A stretch of DNA of 64,000 bases from Eledone cirrhosa (Eukaryota). The notes beneath the pieces are model-generated. The model made no database searches. It saw only the letters and a program-made list of their open reading frames with translations, and had not been told where the DNA came from. The stretch covers positions 34,596,001 to 34,660,000 of the forward strand of contig OZ024743.1 in NCBI GenBank assembly GCA_964016885.1, in the 5' to 3' direction. This document shows, in pieces, positions 4,058 through 32,789 of the stretch. A program made the position numbers and the translations under genes. How positions within the stretch are numbered: position 1 is the stretch's first letter; every line of letters begins with the position of its first letter.

Positions 4058-4578
4058 CACTCCCTTTCTCTCTCACTATCTCTATATATCTCTCACTCTC
4101 TTTCTATCTCTCTCTATCTCACTCTCTTTCTCTATCTTTATCTATCTCACTCTATCTCTCCCTTTCTCTCTCACTCTCTTTCTCTATCTCACTCTATCTC
4201 TTTTTCTCACCCCCCTACCCCACTCTCTCTCTCTCTCTTTCACTCTCTAACTGTTACTCACTATTCCTAATCTAATTATTCGGTGCCACAAGAAAGCATC
4301 CCTCTCTGATGAACGACATCTGTCCGAAACGATATATATATTCATCTTTGCCACCACAAATCTATATATTCCATTTTTTAACAGTTTTGTGACTGGTTTC
4401 CCATTCAAATCCAGAAAGTCTTCACAAAAGTTGATGACATTTTAAAAGAACTTCGAATGTACTGTTGTAGGTATATTCTGTAGCATTTAATTTAAACTAT
4501 GAGTTTGCGAACAATAAGGGACGGGAGATAAACACAGACATAAATTTAAACACAAACACATACACATAGAAACATTTG

Positions 4579-4655
4579 ACTACTGACGAACGATTCCAAC
4601 CGTGAATAACCCCACTGAAAAGTTTCGTGAAATAGTCTTTTTAAGATTATATAGT
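4579..4655 (+). ncRNA. Type I hammerhead ribozyme, copy 1
   Basis: Stem I ACTA/TAGT; core CTGACGA 4583-4589; stem II ACGA...TCGT; GAA; stem III ATAGTCTT/AAGATTAT; predicted AUA cleavage after 4651. Confidence 0.8.
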
Positions 4656-5205
4656 GCATTTGTAGATTTTTCCGAATTGACGGAGAAGTATTTACTCTTA
4701 ATTTTATTTTGAGTTAAGATTCTATTGGTTTTTTTCCCCGGGTTACACAAAATCTGTGGATAAAATTTCTGGTCTTGATTTGTTTTGAATTAGGATTAAA
4801 TTATTTTCCCATATCTTACGTTAAAGGTTTTCATCTTGACGTAATAGTCACATATATGTCTGAATTACTGTTGGCTTCTTGCTTACATTAATTTATCTAT
4901 TTTCATTTATATATTTATACTCGGAATTTATCCTTGAGTGCTTAAAATTAGTTGTGACTAACCCCTGTTTTTTAAAAAAACCGCGATAATATTGCTTTAT
5001 GCTGAACTCCATATCTTTTGTCGAGTTTTTTTTTTTCGGAATGTTCTGACTGCTGTTTCTTGTAAACAGACATTCGTCTCATTCTGACGTCACTAGCCCT
5101 GTCTCCATGTGTGTTTATTAATTCAATTCCACACGAGGTTTGACTAGCCTACTTTTAAATTCCCCTCTTGCATATTTTAGCTGTGACTCTTAGTTAACGT
5201 ATGGA

Positions 5206-5286
5206 GCACTACTGACGAACGACTCCAACCGTGAATAACCCCACTGAAAAGTTTCATGAAATAGTCTTTTTAAGACTATATAGTGC
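5206..5286 (+). ncRNA. Type I hammerhead ribozyme, copy 2
   Basis: Stem I GCACTA/TAGTGC; core CTGACGA 5212-5218; stem II ACGA...TCAT (one mismatch); GAA; stem III ATAGTCTT/AAGACTAT; predicted AUA cleavage after 5280. Confidence 0.8.
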
Positions 5287-5548
5287 ATTTGTAGATTTTT
5301 CCAAATTGACGGAGAAGTATTTACTCTTAATTTTATTTTGAGTTAAGATTCTATTGGTTTTTTCCCCGGATTACACAAAATCTGTGGATAAAATTTCTGG
5401 TCTTGATTTGTTTTGAATTGGGATTAAATTATTTTCCCATATCTTACGTTAAATATTTTTCATCTTGACGCAATAGTCACTTATATGTCTGAATTACGGT
5501 TGGCTTTTTGCTTACGTCTATTTTCATTTATATAATTTCTCTATTTTC

Positions 5549-5620
<72 letters not shown>

Positions 5621-5623
<3 letters not shown>

Positions 5624-10575: not shown

Positions 10576-10968
10576 TTGTTGTTTGGGACCACACATTGAA
10601 AACGTGTTCTGTTGTGGAGATCAGCTGCCCACTTGATGTAAACGTTGTCAGAAAAATACAGGAGAAAGAGGACATCTACGGACCATTGATGAGGAGTTTA
10701 CAAATCCAGTATCCAAGATACACCTTTAGCTTCATACCCATCATTATTGGAGCTACGGGTTATATACCAACCCGTTTGGACCAAAGTATGACTGAACTTG
10801 GATTTGCGGACAAAAAGCGCAGCTCCCTAATTCATAGCTGGCACCTTCAAAATTTGCAAAACATTCTTGCGATTCAAGGGATGACAATTTCTTTTCTTTT
10901 ACAACCTTGCCACCAGGAAGGTGGCCGGTCAAAAAAAATATATACTCGAAATTAAGAGAAAGAGATAA
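10576..10968 (+). mobile_element. 3' fragment of Dong/R4-like RLE LINE inside (CATA)n
   Basis: VVWD...KTCSVVEISCP...KEDIYGPLMRSLQ...PIIIGATG parallels 15730-15900; (CATA)n-type repeat on both sides. Confidence 0.8.
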
Positions 10969-11071
10969 CGTACGTACGTACATACATACATACATACATA
11001 CATACATACATACATACATACATACATACATACATACGTACGTACGTACGTACGTATATACATACATACAT

Positions 11072-11560
11072 GGTGGCTGCCAACTCGTTTTCGAGTACGG
11101 CCACTACTTTATATCCATGTAGGAGAACCCCTACCAATGCGCTAAACGAGTGTGACTTTTTAGTCTAGCCAGCGACTTGAAAACTCTGGTACAAACACTA
11201 CACTTGTGACAATTATTGACACATAGTGCTGGGCCCATGGTACCATGTGACGACAAGTGCAGAGAGATCTCCCGATATAAAGCAATGCCTGTGCCGTGAA
11301 GCTTTTATAGTGAGCAAAGGCACTGCACAAAGCCAGTCCCACTCTCTTAACCAAGATGATATTTACCAAAAAGAAGAACAATTCAACATCATTGGATACC
11401 ATCGGGGTTGCAGGTGTTATATCAGAGTTTTCCTTCTCCTAGAATTCTGCCTTGACAAAGGCTAAGGGGTCATCTCTCCCGGTGATTTTGGATGGCTATT
11501 GACTCTTAAGAGCCCCTTTGCCTTTTGACAGGTTTTGTTTTTAGTCCTGCAGGATGTCCA
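11072..11560 (-). mobile_element. Non-autonomous RTE-derived element, copy 2 (5' truncated)
   Basis: Near-identical reverse complement of 8100-8589. Confidence 0.8.
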
Positions 11561-11686
11561 ATACAGGACATACATACATAAATACATACATACGTACATA
11601 CATATATACATACACACATTCGTGCATTCATAAAAGTATCCCACTATTATACATACATACATACATACATACATACATACATACAT

Positions 11687-12098
11687 GGTGGCTGCCAACT
11701 CGTTTTCGAGTAGGGCCACTACTTTATATCCATGTAGGAGAACCCCTACCGATGCGCTGAACGAGTGTGACTTTTTAGTCCAGCCTGCGACATGAAAACT
11801 CTGGTACAAACACTACACTTGTGACAATTATCGACACATAGTGCTGGGCCCATGGTACCATGTGACGACAAGTGCAGAGAGATCTCCAGATATAAAGCAA
11901 TGCCTGTGCCGTGAAGCTTTTATAGTGAGCAAAGGCACTGCACAAAGCCAGTCCCACTCTCTTAACCAAGATGATATTTACCAAAAAGAAGAACAAGTCA
12001 ACATCATTGGATACCATCAGGGTTGCAGGTGTTATATCAGAGTTTTCCTTCTCCTAGAATTCTGCCTTGACAAAGGCTAAGGGGTCATCTCTCCCGGT
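11687..12098 (-). mobile_element. Non-autonomous RTE-derived element, copy 3 (5' truncated)
   Basis: Near-identical reverse complement of 8178-8589. Confidence 0.8.
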
Positions 12099-12155
12099 AT
12101 ACATACATACATACATACATACATACATACATACATACATACATACATACATACA

Positions 12156-12186: not shown

Positions 12187-15100
12187 CAGTCAACGCGATC
12201 AGTCGCATATTTTTGGCGTGGGAGACTATTTATTAAATTTAAGATGAATACTATCTCCGACAGTAATGCCACAACTACAGCCAGGTTGAATAACTGGTTA
12301 TTCTTCTAACTATCCCTTCTGAAGACACATTTTATTCGAATTCGTAGAGTTATCCGACTAAATACATAATTCATTTTACAAGGATTTGCTACAAACAGCA
12401 TGGCTGAACACAACATCAACAACAAAATTAAGGAAGTATCGAAGACAAATAACAAGGAAGGTAATCAAACTTTATTCAGTTGTAGCTACAGAAGAAACCG
12501 AAATTATAAATCGCATTTCTCTTGGAGTTGCGAACTTAATAATGATTTATTTAATTGTTATAAAATGGCAAAAAACAATCCCTCCATTGGCTATATGAAT
12601 AGAATGAAGCTACACTTGGACGAAATGCACCCAGAGCTAAATTATTTCACAGCGAAACAATTACGCCAACAAGCGACGTTTGTTGAACGTAAAAATAAAA
12701 TAAATATTATTAATTGTAAGTCCCACAGCAAACATGGAATCAACAACACGTTCTACAGATCGCCATGCTACTAGACTTCCTAGCAGCCAGGTCGAACAGC
12801 GTCTTGAAACAACTATGCCTGTAAGAAACTTGACACCACCTGTACCATCTAAGTCTACCTCGAATGCTGGGGAAAACACTATCGATAATAATAATAATCG
12901 AAGAAATAATAATAATAATCGAATAAATGTGATACCACGTATACCATCCGAGTCTACCTCGACTGTTGTGGAAAATACTATCGATAATGATAATCAAAAG
13001 TATAAACAATTGAAAATTTCCCTCAATGAAATCTTCCAGAGAGAAATTAACTCATGTATAAATATCTCTCTTGCTGAACGTGTTAAAATGACAATGGTGA
13101 ATAAAAAACCAAATAATGAAATACTACGTGTTATTGACGAAATAGGGGATGAATATTTACGACGGATAAAAACCCCAACATTTTGGCAAATCAACGCCTG
13201 TTTATATGCCTTAGCAATGACAGTGAAGCATTATCTTAGTGATAGCAGAGATATTAACAAGAACGAAAACACCACCAAAAATACCATCATATATAACTAA
13301 AATAGAATAAAAGAGTGCTGACCTACGAAAAAACATAGGACATGTGACAATGCTCCTTACATGCAAACAAACACAAAAAAACCTCACTCTTCACCAACAA
13401 AGAGTGAAATATAAAATAGAGACGATGTTTGGTAACAGTAGAACCAGAACTCTCCAATATAAGCTGATCACCCTCAAACAAGAATTGAGAGCTGTTAGCG
13501 AAAAACGCCGATACCTAAAGAAGGTAGACGAGAGAAAAATGCTTAATAAAAGATTCAGACGAAACCAAACATCAGTCTATAGAGATATGAAGGGCAAAAT
13601 AATAAGTGTCACTGAGGCCCCATCCCAGAAAAACATAGATTCCTTTTGGAGAAAAATATGGGGTGAAAAGAAGAATTTCAACCAAGATGCAGTGTGGCTA
13701 AGAGAAATCCGAAAGAACTATTGCTCCTACACTACAACAAAAACATACGAAATAAGTGAGGGTACCCTTGAGACTGTGATAGGAAAACTCCAGGAAGAGA
13801 CATGATTGTCTGCTACTGGTACAAAAAACTAATATTCTATCGGAGGTATCTTACTGATAGAAGTTCTTAAGGCACTTATACAAGAATGGTTGACATTAGC
13901 ACAAACGTTACTGGTCCCCAAGAACAAAGACACCCACTTGGGCAAAAAACTACCGTCCCATTGCATGCCAGAACCTGATGTATAAGATATATACGGCCTG
14001 CCTGAACCTATTCCTCCAAGATCACTATGAAAATAATAACATCATCACAGATGAACAAGTAGCTGGAAAGAAAAGGGTTTGGGGATGTGCTGAACAACTC
14101 CTAATCAACAAAACTGCGATGTCGGAGGTGCGACAACTTAGGAGGAATATGACTACAGTCTGGCTGGACTACAGGAAAGCTTTCGATTCTGTTCCCCACT
14201 CTTGGATGATAGAGGCCCTCCAACTTGCTAAAGTCCCAGACATTATTGTCAGAGCCGTAGAGAGACTGTCTTCTTCTTGGGCTACTACCCTAAGGTTAAA
14301 GACAGAGAGGGACTGACTCTATTTTCACTGATAAAATAAAATATTGCAGGGGTATATTTCAGGGGGACAGTCTCTCTGTGATATTATTCATCTTGTCATT
14401 AAACCCCTTGTCCTTTCTGCTCAAGAAATGGGAGGGATACATCATTGGCTCACAGGAGGACAGAAATACGAACCTAACCCATAACTTCTTTGTGGACGAT
14501 CTGAAACTCTATGCCAAGAACATGGATGGGATGAAGAAAAATGTTGACCTGGTTACAACGTTCTCAAAGGATATAGGAATGGAGTTTGGCCAAGATAAAT
14601 GCTCATACATGACTGTAAAGCGGGGAAAAACAACAGCCCAATCTAGCAACATTGTCATCAATGGTCTAACTATTTCACCTATATCTGATGAGGACTGCTA
14701 CATATACCTTGGGATAGATGAGAACATATCCTATAATGGTATCTGTAATAAAGAACGCGTAACCAGTGAATACTACACCCGATTAAGAAAGATCTGGTCA
14801 TCGGAACTTTCTGCGCAAAACAAAACAGTGGCTCACAATGTGTTTGCTGTGCCTGTCCTAACACCAACGTTTGGAATACTCAATTGGACGATAGGCGAAA
14901 TCCAAGCAGTTGATGTTGGAACTCGAAAAATACTGAACAACACCGGAAACTTCCACATCAACAGTGACATAGACCGCCTTTACTTGAAACGTAAGCAGGG
15001 AGGCAGAGGCCTAACATCAGTCCAGACAACATTTGATTGTCGCATTATATCTCTCCTACAACATCTACGAACCTCGAAGCGTAGGAGCCCGCTTCTCGAG

Positions 15101-16152
15101 AAAGTCTATCTGCATGAAACAGATAAGATCATGAGAGTTGGGAAGGAACTCCTTGAGAGATATTCCCTGTGTGATAATCAAAAACTCACACCCAGGGATG
15201 TCGCTCAGCAGTATCGCAGTGAATCCATGGATGAAAAACTGCATGCCTATCAGCAAAAAATCATGCATGGATATGTTGCCAGGAAGCTCCAGAGTGAGAG
15301 TAATATAGATAAGGAAAGTAGTCTATCTTGGACCAACAACCGCTATATTGCTCCCACTTTGAAGGATACGCTTTTGCAATCCAAGAACAGGAGATTAGCA
15401 CGAAATACCTGATTCACAAAAGAGATAGGGATGCAGGCAAAACACCTAGATGTGATAACAAGTGCAGACTCTGCAGAACAAACATCGAGGATATCACCCA
15501 TGTCATCAGCAGCTGTCCAAAGATGTCATCGCGGTACTATCTGCCTATGAGGCATGATATAGTGGCCAAAACACTGTACAATGCAGTTCGTAAAAAAGAT
15601 AGATAATAAACACATTAAAAGCTACAACAATGTGGAAGACATCCATGTACATAATATGAAAGAGTACTGGTGGAATGTTCCAGTAAAAACCCCAATAAAA
15701 TGCAGGCATAACAGACCAGATATTATGATATGGGACAGGGAGAAGAAAACATGCACAGTAGTGGAAATTAGCTGCCCAGCAGATGCCAATATAATATCAA
15801 AGATTAGTGAAAAGGAGAATATTTATGCAGAACTGATGAGAAATCTGCAGATACTCCACCCTGATTAGACCTTCAGATTTATGCCTGTGCTTATTGGGGC
15901 ACTAAGATATGTTAGTAACTGAGCTTCACAGGAACAGAAAGAACACAACTAGTTAGGAAATTACAAGTACAATCCATTAATGGAACAGTAAAAATATGTA
16001 AAACATTCCAAAAATGTTGCATTTAATAACTGCATATACACATGTACAGATACAAAGCTTATACACATGCACACATACAACTCAAAACATCCACATCCAC
16101 ACGTACAATAACATCCATATCTAACTTTGTGAAATTATAAAACCAGAAGAAC
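12186..16152 (+). mobile_element. Near full-length RLE non-LTR retrotransposon (Dong/R4-like), frameshifted
   Basis: RT motifs WLDYRKAFDSVPH, GIFQGDSL, FFVDDLKLY; CCHC CRLC...HVISSC; RLE RPDI...VEISCP; embedded in (CATA)n on both sides. Confidence 0.9.
13978..15868 (+). pseudogene. Reverse transcriptase + CCHC + restriction-like endonuclease (fragmented ORF)
   Basis: ORF pieces 13978-14316, 14378-15412, 15328-15606 and 15581-15868 form one domain order. Confidence 0.9.
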
Positions 16153-20791: not shown

Positions 20792-23700
20792 TTATATGGG
20801 TAACACATACCCCCGAAAAAATGTGCAATCCTCATCTCCAGGAGTACGAAGAGTTTGTACTCCTTTCCTCTCCTCCTCCTTTTCCTCAACATACAGGCTG
20901 ATATAGAGAGAAGGCCCATTCACTCGGGCCATTCTCGCCACTTTCACCCACCTTTCATAAAACTTGCTGGGGTGCAACACCTCTCTCTCCATCCTGATTC
21001 TTCTTCCAAAGTGGTATTTGAAAAAAAGAATCACTTGTTGGCCGGAGAGAAAGGTGTCTGACCTCAGCCCTTTCAACCTTGTCCACGATACAACCTCTTT
21101 CGCCATAGCTATCACACAAAGGAAAACCGCCTCTCCTTCGTTTTTGAAGGAGGGTGGCGGTTTGATCATGACAATGGACTCGGTGGTCAACCGGATTGGT
21201 CCCACCCGCGACAATAGTCGTTCTACATAGCCCCACAGGTCAGTGACGCCCGGGCACTGTATGAATGCGTGCGCGACGGTTTCTTCGTCTCGCACGCACC
21301 TCGGACAGATCTTTTTTGCAGGGTCCCTGCCCGGGCGCCCATGTCTGTACAGCTTGTCTCGAACTGGTAGAGCTCCTCGGTAGCACTGCCAGGCCAGGGA
21401 CTTTTGGAAGTTGTCCATCGGTCCCGGGCGGAAGGTCCTACCGAACAGACTGGCCAGTTCATCTTCCTCTACGCCTAAAGTTTCACCGAGCGCGTCGTCG
21501 CACTTGCTGCGGATCAACCCTCTATAGAATGACGAAGTGGAGTCTCCACTGATCGCCGGGTCCGCCTGCCAGATGGCTGTGAGCGCCTGAGCACATTCCA
21601 TGTGCCAGTCGGCCATTTTCCTCGGTCTTTGCTTGACCCAGGACTGCAGCTCGGTCAGCGAGACGAGTCGTGGGAAGGCTCGCCTCACGAACGGAGCCCA
21701 CACCGGTTGTCCAGTGAGGAATACGTAGAGATGCCGCAGCCTGAGCGCGTGTTTGCGCATCATCAACCACGGCATCCCCAGTCCTCCGTTAGAAGGGTGT
21801 TGGCAGCAGATGGATCTTCTCACCAAAGGAGCCCGCCTCTTCCAAAGGAATCGGAAGAGCGTGTGCTCCATTTTGGCGAGCGTTTCGGCTGGACAAGGCA
21901 CGACGGTCAAGCGGTAGTAGATGGCGGACGCTATAAAAGTGTTCGCCACCTCCGCTCGACCTTTCAAGAATAGTTTGCACTCGGCCCACTTCTGGGTGAG
22001 TGCAAACACCTTGGCTGTCACTTCGTTCCAGTTCTTCTCCATCTGGAGGTCCGGACCAAACCAGACCCCGAGCAGATTTACCGGTCCTTCCGTCCAGCGT
22101 TCGACGACGCCATCGGAAGGCATCGGTTTGCCTCTCCACGATCCGAGTTGCAAACCGATGGACTTGTCCCGGTTTAGCTTCGCTCCTGTGAAACTTTCGT
22201 ATTCCTTCAGTAAGGTGCCGACTTCCTCGATTTGCGAGGCGCTCGACACCATTACTGTCACGTCGTCGGCGTAGGCCGACGTCGCTTTCCGGAGTCCCGG
22301 TTCCAGAGGGATGCTCTGCAATAGCTCCAGCTTCCGCAGTAGTGGCTCGAGAGTCAGTACGTACAGAAGGGAGGAGAGAGGGCATCCCTGTCGAATGGAT
22401 CGCGTAATATGGAACGGCTCCGAGAGGTAGCCGTTCACCTTGACCCTTGAGCAGATGTTGCTGTTGTGCATTGCAACAATCCAGCCTCTGAACACGGGTC
22501 CAAAGCCTGCCGCCTCGAGCACCGCATCCAGGTAACGATGGTCAACCCTATCGAAAGCCTTAGACTGATCCAAGTTGATCAGGGCCCCACCGAAGCCGGG
22601 TTTACACCCTACCCTCTCTATGATGTATCGCATGAGGTGGAGGTTGTCGTGTATGGACCTGGTCGGGATTGCGCATGTCTGCGCTTCTCCCACCAGGTTC
22701 TCAACGACAAGCGCCAGCCTCTTTGCCAACACGTTGGCCAAACTCTGTGTTTAGCAGAGTTATGGGCCGGAAGTTGCCTATGTCATCCCCCTTATTCTCG
22801 TCCTTCCTGATTAGTGTGACCACGCCCCCGGTTACAGAACTGGGAATTCTCCCGTTCTGTTGCCAGTTGCAGTAGACCGCTTCCAGGAGACCGGATAATA
22901 AGTCCGGCATTGCTACGTAAAATTCGTAGGGTAGACCGTCGAGACCTGGAGATTTGCGTTTGCCGCATTGGCTCAGCGCGTCCCCTATCACAGCGGCTGA
23001 AATCGGCTTTTTGCAGAACTTTGCCTCGCTGTCCGAGAGTCGCGGTAGGCCGTCGAGGTATGGACCGAAATGCATAGCCTCTCCCGGCGCGTCGCCCCTC
23101 CCGAACAGTTGAGCAAAGTGCCGCTGAAAAGCCGCACACATCTGCTTCGTATCGTTTTGGTCCTTCAAAGACAGAATCGTGGACTTGTTGCCATTTTTGC
23201 CTCCGTCACTCGGGCCCAGCTAACAGCTTTGGCTCCCTCGTTTCCCAGAGCACGTATTTTGCTTCTGACAACGCAGCCCTCGTGCTTTGCGTCGAAGAAC
23301 TGGTCCAAGGCCGTTCTCGTTGCTAGCACGCTGGCTACGTTTCCACTTCAAATTGCCTCTTCTACTTTATCTACCAGTTCCTTCTCGGTTCTATTTCTAT
23401 CTAACGCTAATTCTTTACTAAAAACTATCGTGTCTAATCTAACTGCCCTCTTGAGAGAGTACCACCATCTGTTGTTGACAATGGCCCCTGTCAAGTGCTG
23501 TTTAACTAAAGTGCTAATCCGTCTACTGTAGGCTTTGCTTGTCGGTAACGACAAGTTCAGCTTCGAGTAGCCGGGTCCTTGTCTATGGGTTCTATCAAGG
23601 TTGGCCATGCAGGTCACTAGTTTGTGATCTGAATAGGCAACCATGAACATTTGTGGACAGCTTAATATGTCCCTATTCTTATTTCTAACTAGAACCCTAT

Positions 23701-24304
23701 CTAGGTATGATTTAGATGTTCCGCTACGATTACTCCACGTCCACAGTGGCGCAGTCGGAAAATCTAGTCGATATCTATCGGCCAGGTCAAATCGGTCGAT
23801 TAACTGTTTGAGGCTGTTACACCCCCCTTTATCGGGACATGCTCCCACATAGTCCCAACGTGCATCTAGGATTCCATTCCAGTCCCCCACTAAAAGCAAG
23901 GAGCGGGACGTTCCCAGAAAAGTCTCTAGACGTTTGAAGAAGTCTGGCCGCGGTGTCCCGGATGGGGCATATGCGGCCACCAGCCTGAAGGCTCCACCTT
24001 CACTACCATCAACGTCTAGGACCACCAGCCGACCCTCCGGGTCCAGATGTACCGTCTGTGTTACGAGGCCCAGGTATTTCCGCAGCAAAACGGCAACTCC
24101 GCCCCCACCTCCCGGTTGACAGAAAGATGCGTAGATCTCAAAGTCATCGAAGATGGGGGCCAGCTGTCGCTCGCTGTGGATCCTGGACTCGCAAATGGCT
24201 ACCACATCCATACTGTGCGACCTGAGGTCGTTTAAGAGTTTGCCCTGTTTCCAGGGCATCCCCAGGCCACGTACGTTCACACATCCAACTCTTATATTGG
24301 TCAT
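20792..24304 (-). pseudogene. Tx1-like ORF2: apurinic endonuclease + reverse transcriptase (three frames)
   Basis: NVRGL, GDWN, YSDHKLV (APE); KSPGLDG, FRPITLLN, DQSKAFDRVDH, QGCPLS, YADD (RT); CPRC...HAFIQC. Confidence 0.92.
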
Positions 24305-24337
24305 GTTGGTGCTGAAAAGTTAAAAGAGGAAAAGAGA

Positions 24338-26268
24338 TCACTCACCCTTCGTCTCCTGGGGACCAGGCCGCACGATTTCCATGGGGGTGTTGGAGGGGTT
24401 GTCTGGATGGGTGGTGGTTTCCGGCGGGGTGAGGACGGAGTTTTTTGGTGGAGTAGGGTCTGGTGGGATGGGGGTGTCTGGGGTGGGAAGACATTTAAGA
24501 AGGACGCGGTTGAGTGGTTTCACGCAGGAATTCCCCACATCCTTCTCAAATGTTTCTTTTAGGGACCTATAAGTTTGTATAGGGACCCTAATCAGTTTTA
24601 GGTTCATTTTTTTGCTATTTTTAATAGAGTGGGCGAAAGTTTTCCCTTCGGTTTTCACCGAAGGGTCGTTCGTGATGGTCTCCATTAGTGTTTTGTTTTC
24701 AGTGTTTATGTAAGTGTAAGTGTAATTTTCTTGTGTTGTGTTTGTTTTTGTCTGTAGTTCTTGTGTGTGCTTTCGTTTTGTTGTAGGTATTTTGTTTTCA
24801 GGAGGTGGGGATTTTGTTTGTGATGTTTTTGTTGTTTGTGTTGGTGGTTGTATGTTTGTGGTAGTGTTTGCTGGTTTTTTGCTTTTGTGATGTCTTTTCT
24901 TTCTTTTTGAGCGATGAGGTTCTCCCTCGTCTTCACTGGGTGATGGCGAGATAGCCTCATCTGTTGTATCGTATGTGTGATTGGGGAGGGGTATGTCTTG
25001 GGGAGCTGTTGTGTCTGTATGTAATTTTGCAGTCGTTTTAGGTGGAGTGGGGTTGGGTGGGACTGTGTTTGTTGTGGTTATTTTTGTGTGTTGGTGTTGT
25101 TGTTGTTGTGGTGGTGTTGGTGGTTGTGTTGTTTTGATGGGTGTCGGCAGAAGAGCCTTTTTTATATTCATTAATTTAGGACAGGAAGCCTTCAGGTGAC
25201 CCCTGCTAAAGCAATGGTAACATGAAGGCCGCCTACCCTCAACCGAAAAGTTTATGTAGGTGAGTCCGTCCAGGAGTACACGTTGTGGGATCATAGCTAT
25301 TCGCTCTGGGCTCATTTGCACCAGAACTTCAATGCTAGTCCCATTGAATACATCTCTGGGGGACTTTCCTACTGACAGTATTCTGTCTTCATCAAAATTG
25401 ATGAAGCCGCACAGTATCCACCATATGTTCACCTTTGGTGTGACACTCGTGATTTTGATCTTTTGTGTCCTTTTTCCCATGTATGTAGGGAAAAAGGTGT
25501 ACAGGTTGGATACAATTGGCGACACAGAGTAATTTTGGGCCGTCAATTGATCCTTCATGAGTACCGAAATACTCCCAAAAAGTTTGCTTCTTTGAATGAA
25601 TGCAATATCATTCATTGAAGTTTTGAAAACCAGTTCAATTTCTTTCTGTGACAATTGGACTGGTTTTCGGGTAGAATTGGAAACTGTCCTAAAAACTATC
25701 GTTTTGAGAGCAGTTTCCTTGCGAATTTCTACCGGAGAATTGATGCTGAAAGCACCATTTTTTTCGAAAGTGACATATCTCCTAGCGTCCTTTAAAAGTT
25801 GTTCAGCATTTGTTATGTCGAGATATATCACTTCCTCCTTTTTTTGAACTGTCTGTGCAAAGGAGATTTTGGTTTCTTTGTGGAATTATCCGTGTTGGTG
25901 GTGTTGTCATTATTGTTGTTATTGTTGTTGTTATTCTTGTTGTCACCGATGTTGATATTATTCGTATTTTCCTTGGTGTTGTTGTTGTCTTTGATGCTGG
26001 TGTTATTGGTGTTGTCTTTATTTTTTTCTTTGTTGTTGTTATCATTGTTGTTTTTATCATCATTATTGGTGTTGCTGTTATTTTTGTTGTCATTGAACTG
26101 TTTGGTGTCATTTGTGCTGTTTGGATATGAATTTGTTTTTGCATTTTCATTTCGTCTTTCCATCTCTATAGTGTCTATTGAGAAGGAAGGGAAAGAAGAC
26201 GATGTTGACTGCGAGCTTTGTAGTCTTACCGCCTCTCCACCACCATTATCGTTGGACGCAGCGTTCAT
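24338..26268 (-). CDS. Tx1-like ORF1 (gag-like nucleic-acid-binding protein), one frameshift near 25830
   Basis: 497-aa ORF with CYHCFSRGHLKASC knuckle plus an abutting upstream 146-aa N-rich ORF broken near an A-run. Confidence 0.8.
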
Positions 26269-26514: not shown

Positions 26515-29500
26515 TTTCTTTATTTACCATAAAGGCATAAAAAGAATGGACAAATACAAAAGGGGGAGTTTACATATAATCGAGTAAAAAGGGTGTAACA
26601 TGAAAATAATCGAAAATAACCTCAAAAGGGAGGGGGCGTGATGGGGGTTGCACACACCCCCGAAAAAGTGTGCAATCCTTTGCCCGGGGAGCACATGGAG
26701 AAGGTTCTCCCCTCTCCTTTACTTCTTTACCTGCAGGATGGTATACAGAGAAGGCCCATTTACACGAGCCATTCTCGCCACTATCACCCACCTTTCATAA
26801 AACTGCCTGTGGCCAAGCACCTCTCTCTCCATTCTTATCTTTCTTCCGAAGTGATATCGGAAGAAGTAGACCAGACTATGGCCAGAGAGGAAGTTGCCTG
26901 ACCTCAGACCTTTCAATCGTGTCCACCAAACAACCTCTTTCAACATGGCTATTACGCACAGAAAAACCGCCTTTGCTTCCTTTGTGAAGAGGGGAGGCGG
27001 TTTGATTGTCATCACGGACTCGGCGGTCAATTTAATCGGCGCCACCCGCGACAGCAGTCGTTCGGCGTAGCCCCACAGATCAGCCACGCCCGGACATTGC
27101 ACCAATGCGTGCGCAACGGTTTCTTCGTGACGCACGCATCTAGGGCAAATCTTTTTTGAGGGATCCCTGCCCGGGCGCCCGTGTCTGTAGAGCCTCTCTC
27201 GAACGGGTAGAGCCCCCCGGTAGCACTGTCAGGCCAGTGACTTCTGGAAGTTGTCCATTGGTCCTGGGCCGAAAGTCCTACCGAACAGGCTGGCCAGTTC
27301 GTCTTCTTCCATGTCCAGCGACTCTCCAAGGGTGTCATCGCCCCTGCTAGCCACCAGCCCTCTATAGAATGATGAGGTGGATTCTCCACCGATGGCCTGG
27401 CCCGCTTGCCAGAGAGCCCTGAGCGCCTGAGCACACTCAGTGTGCCAGTCTCCCAGTTTTCCGGATCTTTGCTTGACCCAGGACTGTAGCTCGGTGAGCG
27501 AGACGAGTCTCGGAAAGGCTCGTTTCACGAACGGAGCCCACACCGGTTGACCAGTGAGGAATACCTGTAGGTGCCGTAGCCTTAATGCGTGCCTACGCAT
27601 CATCAACCACGGCATCCCCAGCCCTCCTTTCGAAGGTTGTTGGCAGCAGATGGATCTTCTCACCATAGGAGGGCGCTTCTTCCAAAGAAATTGGAAGAGC
27701 ATGCGTTCCATGGTGGTGAGTGTTTCCTTAGGGCAAGGCACGACAGTCAGGCGGTAGTAAGTGACGGACGCTATGTAAATGTTCGCCACCTCCGCCCGGC
27801 CTTTTAGGGACAGCTTACACTTGGCCCATTTCTGGGTTAGTGCAAACACCTTGTTCGTAACCCCGTTCCAGTTCTTTTCCACCTGGAGGTCCGGTCTAAA
27901 CCAGACCCCAAGCAACTTTACCGGGCCCTCCGTCCAGTGTCCGACGACACCGTCAGGAGGCATCGGTCTGCCTCTCCACGTTCCGAGTTGCAGCCCGATG
28001 GATTTTTCCCGGTTCAGTTTCGCTCCTGACAACCTTTCGTACTCCTCCAGTAAGGTACCGATCGCCTCGATCTCCGAGTCGGTCGTTACCATTACTGTTA
28101 CGTCATCGGCGTAGGCCGACACCGCTTTGCTCAATCCTGGTTCCAGGGGGATACCCTGCAACAACTCCAACTTCCTCAGTAAAGGCTCGAGAGTCAATAC
28201 GTACAGAAGGGAGGAGAGAGGGCACCCCTGTCGAATGGATCGTGTGATTTCAAACGGCTTCGAAAGGTAGCCGTTCACCTTGATCCTAAAACAGATGTGG
28301 TTGCTATGTAAGGCAGTTATCCAACCTCTGAAAACAGGACCGAACCCAGCCGCCGCTAGCACCGCATCCAGGTAACCATGGTCGACCCTATCGAAGGCCT
28401 TAGACTGATCCAAGTTGATCAGGGCCCCACCGAAGCCGGGTTTGTTGCCAACCCTCTCTATGATGTATCGCATGAGGTGGAGGTTATCGTGAATGGACCT
28501 GGATGGGATAGCACATGTCTGCGCATCTCCCACCAGGCCACCCACGACAAGCGCCAACCTCTTTGCTAACACCTTGGCCAAAATCTTTAACTCTGTGTTT
28601 AGCAGGGTTATGGGCCGAAAATTATTTATACTATCCCCCTTGTTCTCGTCCTTCCTCACCAGCGTGACTACGCCCTTGGCTACAGAACAAGGAATTCTCC
28701 CGTTCTGCTGCCAATTGCAGTAGACCGCTTCGAGGAGTTCGGAGAAGAAGACCGGCATTGCTAAATAAAGTTCGTAAGGTATACCATCGAGACCTGGAGA
28801 TTTGCGTCTGCTGCATTGGCTCAGCGCATCTCCGATCTCATCAGCCGAGATTGGTCCCTCGCAGGACTCTGCCTCTTCGCTCGAGAGACGCGGCAGGCCG
28901 TCGAGGTATGGACCGAAATCCACGCCCCCGCCCGGACCCTCGCCTCCCCCGAACAATCGGGCAAAGTGCCTTTGAAAGGCCTCGCACATCTGCTTAGGCT
29001 CCCGGATCGCCCGTCCATCTTCGTCTTGCAACGACCGGATGGTGGATCGATTTCCACTCTTAGCTTCTGTCAGGCGGGCCCAGCCAACGGCTTTGGCCCC
29101 CTCATTACCTAGAGCACGTATTTTACTTCGAATGACGCAGCCTTCGTGCTTTGCATCGAAAAACTGGTTCAAGGCCGTCCTCGATGCCAGCACTCTGGCC
29201 ACATCTTCGCTCTTGATTGCCTCTTCTAATTTACCTGTTAATTCTTTCTCGTTTCTATTCCTATCGGCAGCTAACATCTTGCTATAACTTATTGATTCTG
29301 TTCTAATCTCTCTTTTGAGAGATGCCCACCATCGGTTGTTGACGATTGCACCCGTCAACCTCTCCTTAACTAATCTGCTAATCCGGTTTCTGTAAGTCTC
29401 TTTTGCCGGTAAAGACAAATTAAGTTTCCAGTAACCGGGACCCTGTTTATGTGTTTTCTCGAGATTGACTACGCAGGTCACTAATTTGTGGTCCGTGTAG

Positions 29501-29993
29501 CCAACCGTGCGCATTTCTGGACAGCTTAATATGTCCCTATCCTTACTTCTAACTAAGAATCTATCTAAGTACGATCTAGATTGACCACTGTGGTTTCTCC
29601 AAGTCCAGGTAGGCACAGTTGGAAAATCTAGTCGATATCTATCGACCAAGTTAAAACGGTCGAGTAACCCCTTAAGGCTGTTACACCCCCCTCTATTAGG
29701 ACATGCTCCTGCATAGTCCCAACGTGCATCTAGGATGTCATTCCAATCCCCCGCTAGAAGCAGGGAACGCGACGTTCCCAGAAAAGTCTCCAAACGCTGG
29801 AAGAAGTCGGGCCGTTCAGCTCCGAAAGGGGAGTAGACGGCGATCAGTCTCAAGGCCGCACTTTCACTACTGCCAACGTCTAGCACCAACAAACGACCCT
29901 CCGGGTCCGAGTGCACAACCTGTACGGCAAGACCCAGGTGTTTTTGCAGCAGTACGACAACCCCACCCCCACCTCCAGGTTGACAGAGAGATG
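26515..29993 (-). mobile_element. Tx1-like LINE, 5' truncated (copy C), with 895-aa APE-RT ORF 27229-29916
   Basis: Same motifs as copy B; flanked by (GATA)n at both ends. Confidence 0.92.
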
Positions 29994-30019
29994 CGATAGA
30001 TAGATAGATAGATAGATAT

Positions 30020-30076
<57 letters not shown>

Positions 30077-30420
30077 GTTATGTAACCAAAACGCTGAAGT
30101 CGGAAACCTTCTCACATATCCCCAATATTTTTCTTTGCATCATTCACTTGCATCTTTGCTTGCAACTGCGTGAGTGTAGTTAACCCATTGGTAGTTAACT
30201 CCCTTAATATCTGCTCTTCTGCATAGCTCCTCAAAAGCCACACATCAATGTCTTTCTTTTCTATTCTCTGCCATCACTTTCTCATACACTTACATCCTCT
30301 CTCCACCTTTAAAACTATTCCCTTCCTTCAGCCATTTCATTACTTTACGACTCCACGAAAATACATTTGTCCTAAATTTTCAACTTTTAACTCAGACGAC
30401 CAAACTTATCATGTACCCGG

Positions 30421-32509: not shown

Positions 32510-32600
<91 letters not shown>

Positions 32601-32604
<4 letters not shown>

Positions 32605-32789
32605 GGAGCTTCTACAGGACTAGTACTGTTTCATTTAGATGAAATCTTCAGGAAGCACCTGAAGATTTCATCTGAATGAAACAGTACTAGTCCTGTAGAA
32701 GCTCCTTCTATAAAATAAAACAATTTTACTCTGCCATGTATTGAGTACCTTACTTACTGTGGTTATCTCCGACTCAACCCGGGACCTAC

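Follow-up and report, generated by a model that had tools for sequence, protein, structure and literature searches.

A dispersed non-coding 629-nt repeat with type I hammerhead motifs in Eledone cirrhosa, a likely non-LTR retrozyme with a predicted priming site

Anatomy of the locus

The window analysed here, that is, the whole stretch of 64,000 nucleotides, contains a locus that consists of 1.5 units of a 629-nt repeat. Two direct repeats of about 341 nt, at 4579-4919 and at 5208 to about 5556, align in register at an offset of 629 nt. Throughout this paper, positions within the unit are denoted by q, where q1 corresponds to position 4579 of the window. The features of the locus are as follows.

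4579..4919, plus strand: 5' repeat (q1-341), 5'-truncated at stem I
4579..4655, plus strand: type I hammerhead motif 1, predicted cut after 4651; stem I 4579-4582/4652-4655 (4 bp only), core 4583-4589, stem II 4590-4593/4625-4628, GAAA 4629-4632, stem III 4632-4639/4643-4650
4652..5280, plus strand: predicted monomer between the cut sites, 629 nt, non-coding and hairpin-rich (from ORFs and fold)
4905..4923, plus strand: internal TA patch with ACTCG after it; marks where in the unit copies of the family end, and is the predicted start of reverse transcription
4920..5207, plus strand: internal segment (q342-629), single-copy at this locus
5206..5286, plus strand: type I hammerhead motif 2, predicted cut after 5280; stem I 5206-5211/5281-5286 (6 bp), core 5212-5218, stem II with a C5220-A5256 mismatch, stem III 5261-5268/5272-5279 (8 bp)
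5208..5556, plus strand: 3' repeat, whose end is the fixed 3' end of the family; terminal motif duplicated at 5517-5531
5551..5621, no strand assigned: (TA)n tract at the element's 3' end, the likely target site

The cut sites were called with a type I hammerhead descriptor. Alignment and descriptor agree with an earlier, sequence-only reading of this DNA, which had proposed two repeats of about 340 bp, each with a hammerhead, cuts after 4651 and 5280, and a monomer of 629 nt. Both repeats contain the core CTGACGA, GAAA and an AUA triplet, together with an 8-bp stem III and a stem II of 4 bp whose loop has 31 nt. As a control, the descriptor was applied to both strands of 100 dinucleotide shuffles of the window; these gave two matches in all, and none with a stem III of at least 7 bp. 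Rfam reported no hammerhead at the gathering threshold or at E≤5, only AT-repeat noise, probably because loop II is so long.

The monomer had also been described as free of open reading frames, and it is: read as a circle, its longest ATG-initiated frame has 16 aa on the plus strand and 39 aa on the minus strand, and its longest stop-free stretches span 57 and 61 codons, respectively. The unit has a GC content of 0.33, and the monomer folds at -141 kcal/mol (z -6.6), better than 20 of 20 shuffles.

The further claim that the two hammerheads would excise this monomer holds only in part. The motifs and the cut sites are predicted as described, but both ribozymes of this locus are damaged, and excision by this copy is doubtful. 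In the first copy, stem I has just 4 bp, stem III includes a G-U pair, and the minimum-free-energy (MFE) fold is not a hammerhead (z -0.51). In the second, stem II contains the C-A mismatch, and the MFE fold retains stems I and III (z -2.89). The element at this locus is probably old, with weak activity at best.

Contigs of runs X1-X3 (one sample of unrecorded kind, possibly the assembly's own) cover 4300-4631/4636 with no differences. The 5' flank at 4268-4578 was rejected as a part of the family on account of its single full match in the genome. A lone hammerhead-like core (CTGATGA...GAAAC) that has no partner for stem I lies inside this 311-nt flank at 4296-4345, 270 nt before the element. 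The copy of the terminal motif at 5517-5531 is an extra one, present in the second repeat only; the 3'-terminal motif is likewise shortly reiterated at L030, L082 and L101, as would be expected if synthesis had started repeatedly at the same template site.

A dispersed family with a fixed 3' end

A search of the animal's own genome (3.0 Gb in 1796 contigs) returned 3592 candidates, the best 40 of which were scored. A 30-mer near the 3' end has 607 exact matches in the genome, and its reversed control has none. The first 100 of these 607 places make up our sample A: four of them lie inside another locus and six were left out, which leaves 90 loci, 88 of them distinct. The family comprises at least several hundred genomic copies of a non-coding 629-base mobile repeat. 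Its units are joined head to tail, and arrays reach 3.2 units or more, two loci (L014 and L008) having 3.2; most copies are dispersed and hold fewer than 1.6 units.

The two ends of these copies behave differently. The 3' end is fixed: 86 of the 88 copies in sample A stop at q310-345, the remaining two running further, and this end is the TA patch that lies about 260 nt downstream of the predicted cut. The 5' end, by contrast, may lie anywhere from 54 to more than 1000 nt upstream. Genomic copies are thus not random circular permutations of one unit, since only one of their ends varies. We find (TA)4 at the 3' end in 78/88 copies and no more than 20 nt from the 5' end in 63/88, compared with 738 of 8554 flanking 20-nt windows (8.6%). 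Every sampled copy that passes the ribozyme continues upstream into the same internal segment (q342-629) of the unit.

At the present locus the first repeat does begin at stem I, as had been noticed, but this start is a 5' truncation point and not a rule of the family: 435 exact matches read through position 4579. Fold-back junctions at the stem I start, where a short inverted copy of the element's own core is attached, occur in three exact matches and in L197 and L238. They look as if a cDNA end had folded back, and the window's own 5' junction would fit the same pattern with one transition. Many 5' ends at first seemed to cluster at stem I, but this was partly an artefact of the query start, since several of the copies extend upstream when they are compared with a second natural unit (L134, L187, L249-L254). 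Just before the core, (TA)3 is found at eight distinct places, namely at five first-turn 5' ends, at one second-turn 5' end, at one internal site and in one member of another family; a control site 30 nt further in gives three places.

The ribozyme is conserved in the family. Among 153 internal ribozyme copies, 114 have an intact core, and 55 combine it with all 18 pairs. At q1-q77, in stem I, the pair is T-A in 126/149 copies and A-T in 18/149, a compensatory change that is probably a single event. The other common variants of the motif fall at N7, or in loop II, or they preserve pairing (A-U to G-U). Such variation suggests that the fold was under selection in the source elements.

Candidate partner and template

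Penelope-like elements (PLEs) are the candidate partner of the family. The genome contains 10,597 GIY-YIG candidates, of which the best 150 were scored and 30 of these examined. Two of the three long PLE ORFs that we scanned contain both a reverse transcriptase (RT) and a GIY-YIG domain, the third an RT only, and a CX4CxxC linker is present in 5/5 PLE family proteins. At L225, a 938-aa ORF encodes a full-length protein of the RT/GIY-YIG kind. Our label ‘Neptune-type’ rests on this linker motif, which PMC8557442 assigns, in the portion cited here, to Neptune and Nematis and ties to microsatellite targeting. The three PLE families compared at this point end in a pyrimidine tract, a TA patch and ACTCG within a few bases, as does the unit at 4905-4923; the chance of sharing this junction motif is about 0.0005 per site. 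The unit has a single ACTCG pentamer. The ACTCG junction motif is absent from a second family of non-coding hammerhead repeats, at L226. Beyond the motif, the unit resembles the nearest PLE 3' UTR no more than shuffles do in the five of eight comparisons that were listed, and no parent PLE with wider homology to the unit was found among the 30 loci examined from the 150 scored.

The second family just mentioned lies at L226:5700-6700 (plus strand), downstream of a PLE; it is a tandem with a 459-nt period in which each unit bears one type I hammerhead, and (TA)n stands at either end. Three PLE families (L155-L174, L225-L233) have degenerate hammerhead cores, TTGATAA or TTGAAAA instead of CTGANGA, 150-270 nt before their 3' ends.

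Two kinds of template come into consideration for the copying of the family, a circular RNA and an uncut linear RNA. When left and right repeats are compared at 71 loci, 1026 of 1094 subfamily diagnostic cells agree, where 632 would be expected, and the repeats diverge by 5.2% within loci versus 9.4% between loci. Therefore, both repeats at a locus derive from a single sequence variant, although the nearest match is the right repeat of the same locus in just 20/71 cases. An apparently directional difference between left and right repeats at q280-282 proved to be an artefact of gap placement. Of the 78 sample-A copies whose terminal repeat contains the probe, 43 extend as far as the cut site; all but one of these (42/43) pass through it. 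Thus, the usual template is probably not a cut linear RNA.

For the second turn we drew sample B, the copies that cross the TA patch a second time. It began with 90 matches, of which 88 records were examined; after the removal of 3 duplicates, 11 copies with broken 3' ends and the irregular copies, 69 were left. Survival from q230 to q1 is 37/60 in the first turn and 4/34 in the second (p 3e-6), a drop of about fivefold; the second-turn count leaves out six irregular copies, and with the two long ones included (L192, L210) it would be at most 6/36. Truncation also climbs late in the first turn (11/26 at q449-372), so that the second-turn drop could also stem from a simple limit on length or from a small number of long linear masters. 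Stops in the ribozyme zone stand at 9/13 in the second turn versus 6/43 in the first, and outside the ribozyme second-turn truncation is higher as well (12/34 versus 9/60, and 9/22 versus 8/51; p 0.04 and 0.03). The long sources that internal priming on linear RNA would call for are rare: none of 78 copies reaches at least 1258 nt, and 2/69 reach at least 1006 nt.

A circle would explain repeat concordance, read-through of the cut site and the second-turn drop in one step, as could a few long uncut masters. We count in favour of the circular template that the ribozyme is retained, that long sources are rare and that there is no stop at the cut site, and we consider the circular route the probable one. 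The sequence-only reading had already proposed reverse transcription of a circular RNA; this is still the best reading, a proposal rather than a demonstration, and an uncut tandem transcript also fits. Divergent-primer RT-PCR alone would not be diagnostic of a circle, because the 5280/4652 junction is already present in tandem DNA.

On balance, we favour the view that the locus is a non-LTR retrozyme that was copied from a self-cleaved, circularised RNA by a Neptune-type PLE. A tandem copy would be transcribed, its two hammerheads would excise the monomer, and a host ligase would close the monomer into a circle. A PLE protein would nick (TA)n, and reverse transcription would begin at the internal TA patch about 260 nt downstream of the cut. 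The reverse transcriptase would then cross the sealed junction and halt at a variable point, oftener after one full turn. Copies of about 1.55 units or more, which hold two ribozymes, could seed the next round. In a more specific form, which we put forward tentatively, the genomic copies record rolling-circle TPRT of the ribozyme-made circle: the Neptune PLE might recognise the TA-patch-ACTCG that is shared with its own pLTR, prime at nicked (TA)n, and be lost more often in the second turn, where it would have to displace its own cDNA.

The main rival keeps the family and the PLE partner, but takes as template an uncut linear transcript of a few multi-unit masters, or a linear RNA with template jumps; the ribozyme would be unneeded, and no circle would form. 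We regard this as rather doubtful. Multi-unit arrays exist, as it demands, but long sources are rare, and internal priming would cost one unit per round, so that the family must regain length somehow. Concordant repeats and read-through of the cut site are equally its predictions. The extra second-turn stops in the ribozyme zone could mark the 5' end of such a template, but second-turn truncation is higher away from the ribozyme too. Uncut RNA was the main substrate of an Anolis PLE in vitro, where hammerhead mutants had no effect on insertion, according to the part of PMC11167929 cited here; in the present family, however, the ribozyme stayed intact through subfamily changes, the compensatory pair included.

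It is very improbable that we are dealing with a 5'-truncated autonomous PLE, in which the tandem would be only the pLTR of a coding element. The anatomy does match the partial tandems of PLEs in the cited portion of PMC8557442, and GIY-YIG candidates are numerous in this genome, but the arrangement that the sequence-only reading had singled out as speaking against a retrozyme, an internal segment preceded by a PLE ORF, was not found: PLE protein matches occur in 8/178 locus records, and none of them runs into the element. Upstream of the ribozyme, moreover, every long copy goes on into the same unit. Therefore, the family is not a truncated coding PLE, an alternative that is largely refuted for the sampled copies. 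Least probable of all is that the repeats are a satellite or arose by local tandem duplication, the hammerhead-like motif being decayed or due to chance. The lack of an Rfam match and the MFE fold of the first copy would suit this reading, but the hundreds of dispersed copies that share a fixed 3' end, the shuffle control, and the conserved core and stems speak against it.

Known elements and other repeats in the window

Non-LTR retrozymes were defined in PMC7229834, the cited part of which describes circRNAs in coral, mussel and axolotl and ligation by RtcB, proposes PLEs as the mobiliser, and leaves open whether priming is by a DNA target or by a small RNA. A preprint (bioRxiv 10.64898/2026.07.22.740005) gives, in the portion used here, a range of 51-972 nt for the length of the unit, makes the case for an origin from PLEs on the grounds of co-occurrence and pLTR trees, and reports cleavage in just 1/9 Xenopus dimers. 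For PLEs themselves, the corresponding parts of PMC11167929 and PMC4209133 state, respectively, that the RT initiates internally and requires sequence 3' of the start, and that circular templates have been proposed for PLE tandems.

Membership of the family in the non-LTR retrozymes is very likely. As in the animal retrozymes described in these portions, its non-coding units stand head to tail with one type I hammerhead each, GC is low (33%), PLEs are present in the genome, LTR features are absent, and the 629-nt unit lies inside the 51-972 nt range of the preprint. It differs in having a longer unit than the invertebrate retrozymes of PMC7229834 (170-400 nt), a 31-nt loop II and an 8-bp stem III, and in occurring mostly as dispersed copies of fewer than 1.6 units instead of long arrays. 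The cited portions of PMC7229834 and the preprint contain no description of a fixed 3' end or of (TA)n targeting.

With Neptune and Nematis PLEs and their pLTRs, as described in the cited parts of PMC8557442, PMC4209133 and PMC11167929, the family shares partial tandems, 5' truncation, a fixed internal 3' start, microsatellite targets, occasional 5' inversions, a hammerhead 150-270 nt before the 3' end, and the junction motif. In contrast to those elements, it has no ORF, a canonical core (three of the local PLE families have degenerate ones) and a long stem III; it shows no clear class of 30-40 nt tails and no overall homology to the PLE UTRs compared. The criterion for an autonomous PLE is an ORF with RT and GIY-YIG, and there is none in the unit and none adjoining it in 178 records. 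Of the features of a non-autonomous PLE derivative, a fixed 3' end, 5' truncation, a partial tandem and a PLE-type target are present; as to homology with the pLTR of an autonomous family, the short junction motif is all that is shared among the 30 loci examined. Non-autonomous Chlamys PLEs such as MRC1 (PMC8557442, in the part cited) are likewise non-coding, pLTR-forming and inserted head to tail, with 3' ends like those of autonomous families; unlike the present family they are algal, and Naiad and Chlamys reportedly lack canonical hammerheads. Plant LTR retrozymes, as summarised in the preprint, also have two direct repeats of about 340 nt with hammerheads and release a non-coding RNA of about 600 nt. 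They are, however, defined by type III ribozymes, true LTRs with fixed ends, PBS/PPT and 4-bp target duplications, whereas here the topology is type I and the 5' end is variable.

Among the papers listed in a survey of the literature on hammerheads in octopus, on cephalopod non-LTR retrozymes and on microsatellite insertion of metazoan retrozymes, none describes this family, which may already be catalogued in Repbase or Dfam. The retrozyme class is already known; what is new is that a priming site and a partner are predicted. In the literature cited, the priming of retrozyme circles and the enzyme responsible for their movement are still matters of proposal. If the rolling-circle reading is true, it names the priming site and the partner of an animal retrozyme, which the cited portions of PMC7229834 and the preprint leave open. 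The family offers a mapped candidate start site, a target, a candidate partner clade and a length signature, and so makes retrozyme mobilisation testable.

Several other repeats lie in the window. Two copies of another type I hammerhead family are found at 32600-32780 and 60225-60360 (cores at 32659 and 60236), and similar motifs occur in L230 and L233; the copy at 32.6 kb has an inverted duplicate whose turning point is the 5' strand of stem I, which resembles the fold-back junctions described above. None of the RT-encoding ORFs in the window belongs to a PLE. A decayed RT-bearing LINE at 13000-16100 and 10590-10950, with a cysteine motif after the RT and adjoining (TACA)n, is presumably an R4/Dong-type element. 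Two APE-RT LINEs with zf-RVT domains, one of them with a 960-aa open frame, occupy 20792-25885 and 26719-30111 (minus strand). Between (TACA)n tracts, at 11070-11570 and 11686-12100, there are two tandem copies, 615 nt apart, of a dispersed repeat of about 500 nt that is also present in L226 and L231 and in which our scan detected no hammerhead core. Finally, a near-perfect, MITE-like inverted repeat lies at 60402-60863, with arms at 60484-60619 and 60647-60782 that are 100% identical, plus 87-nt arms at 98%.
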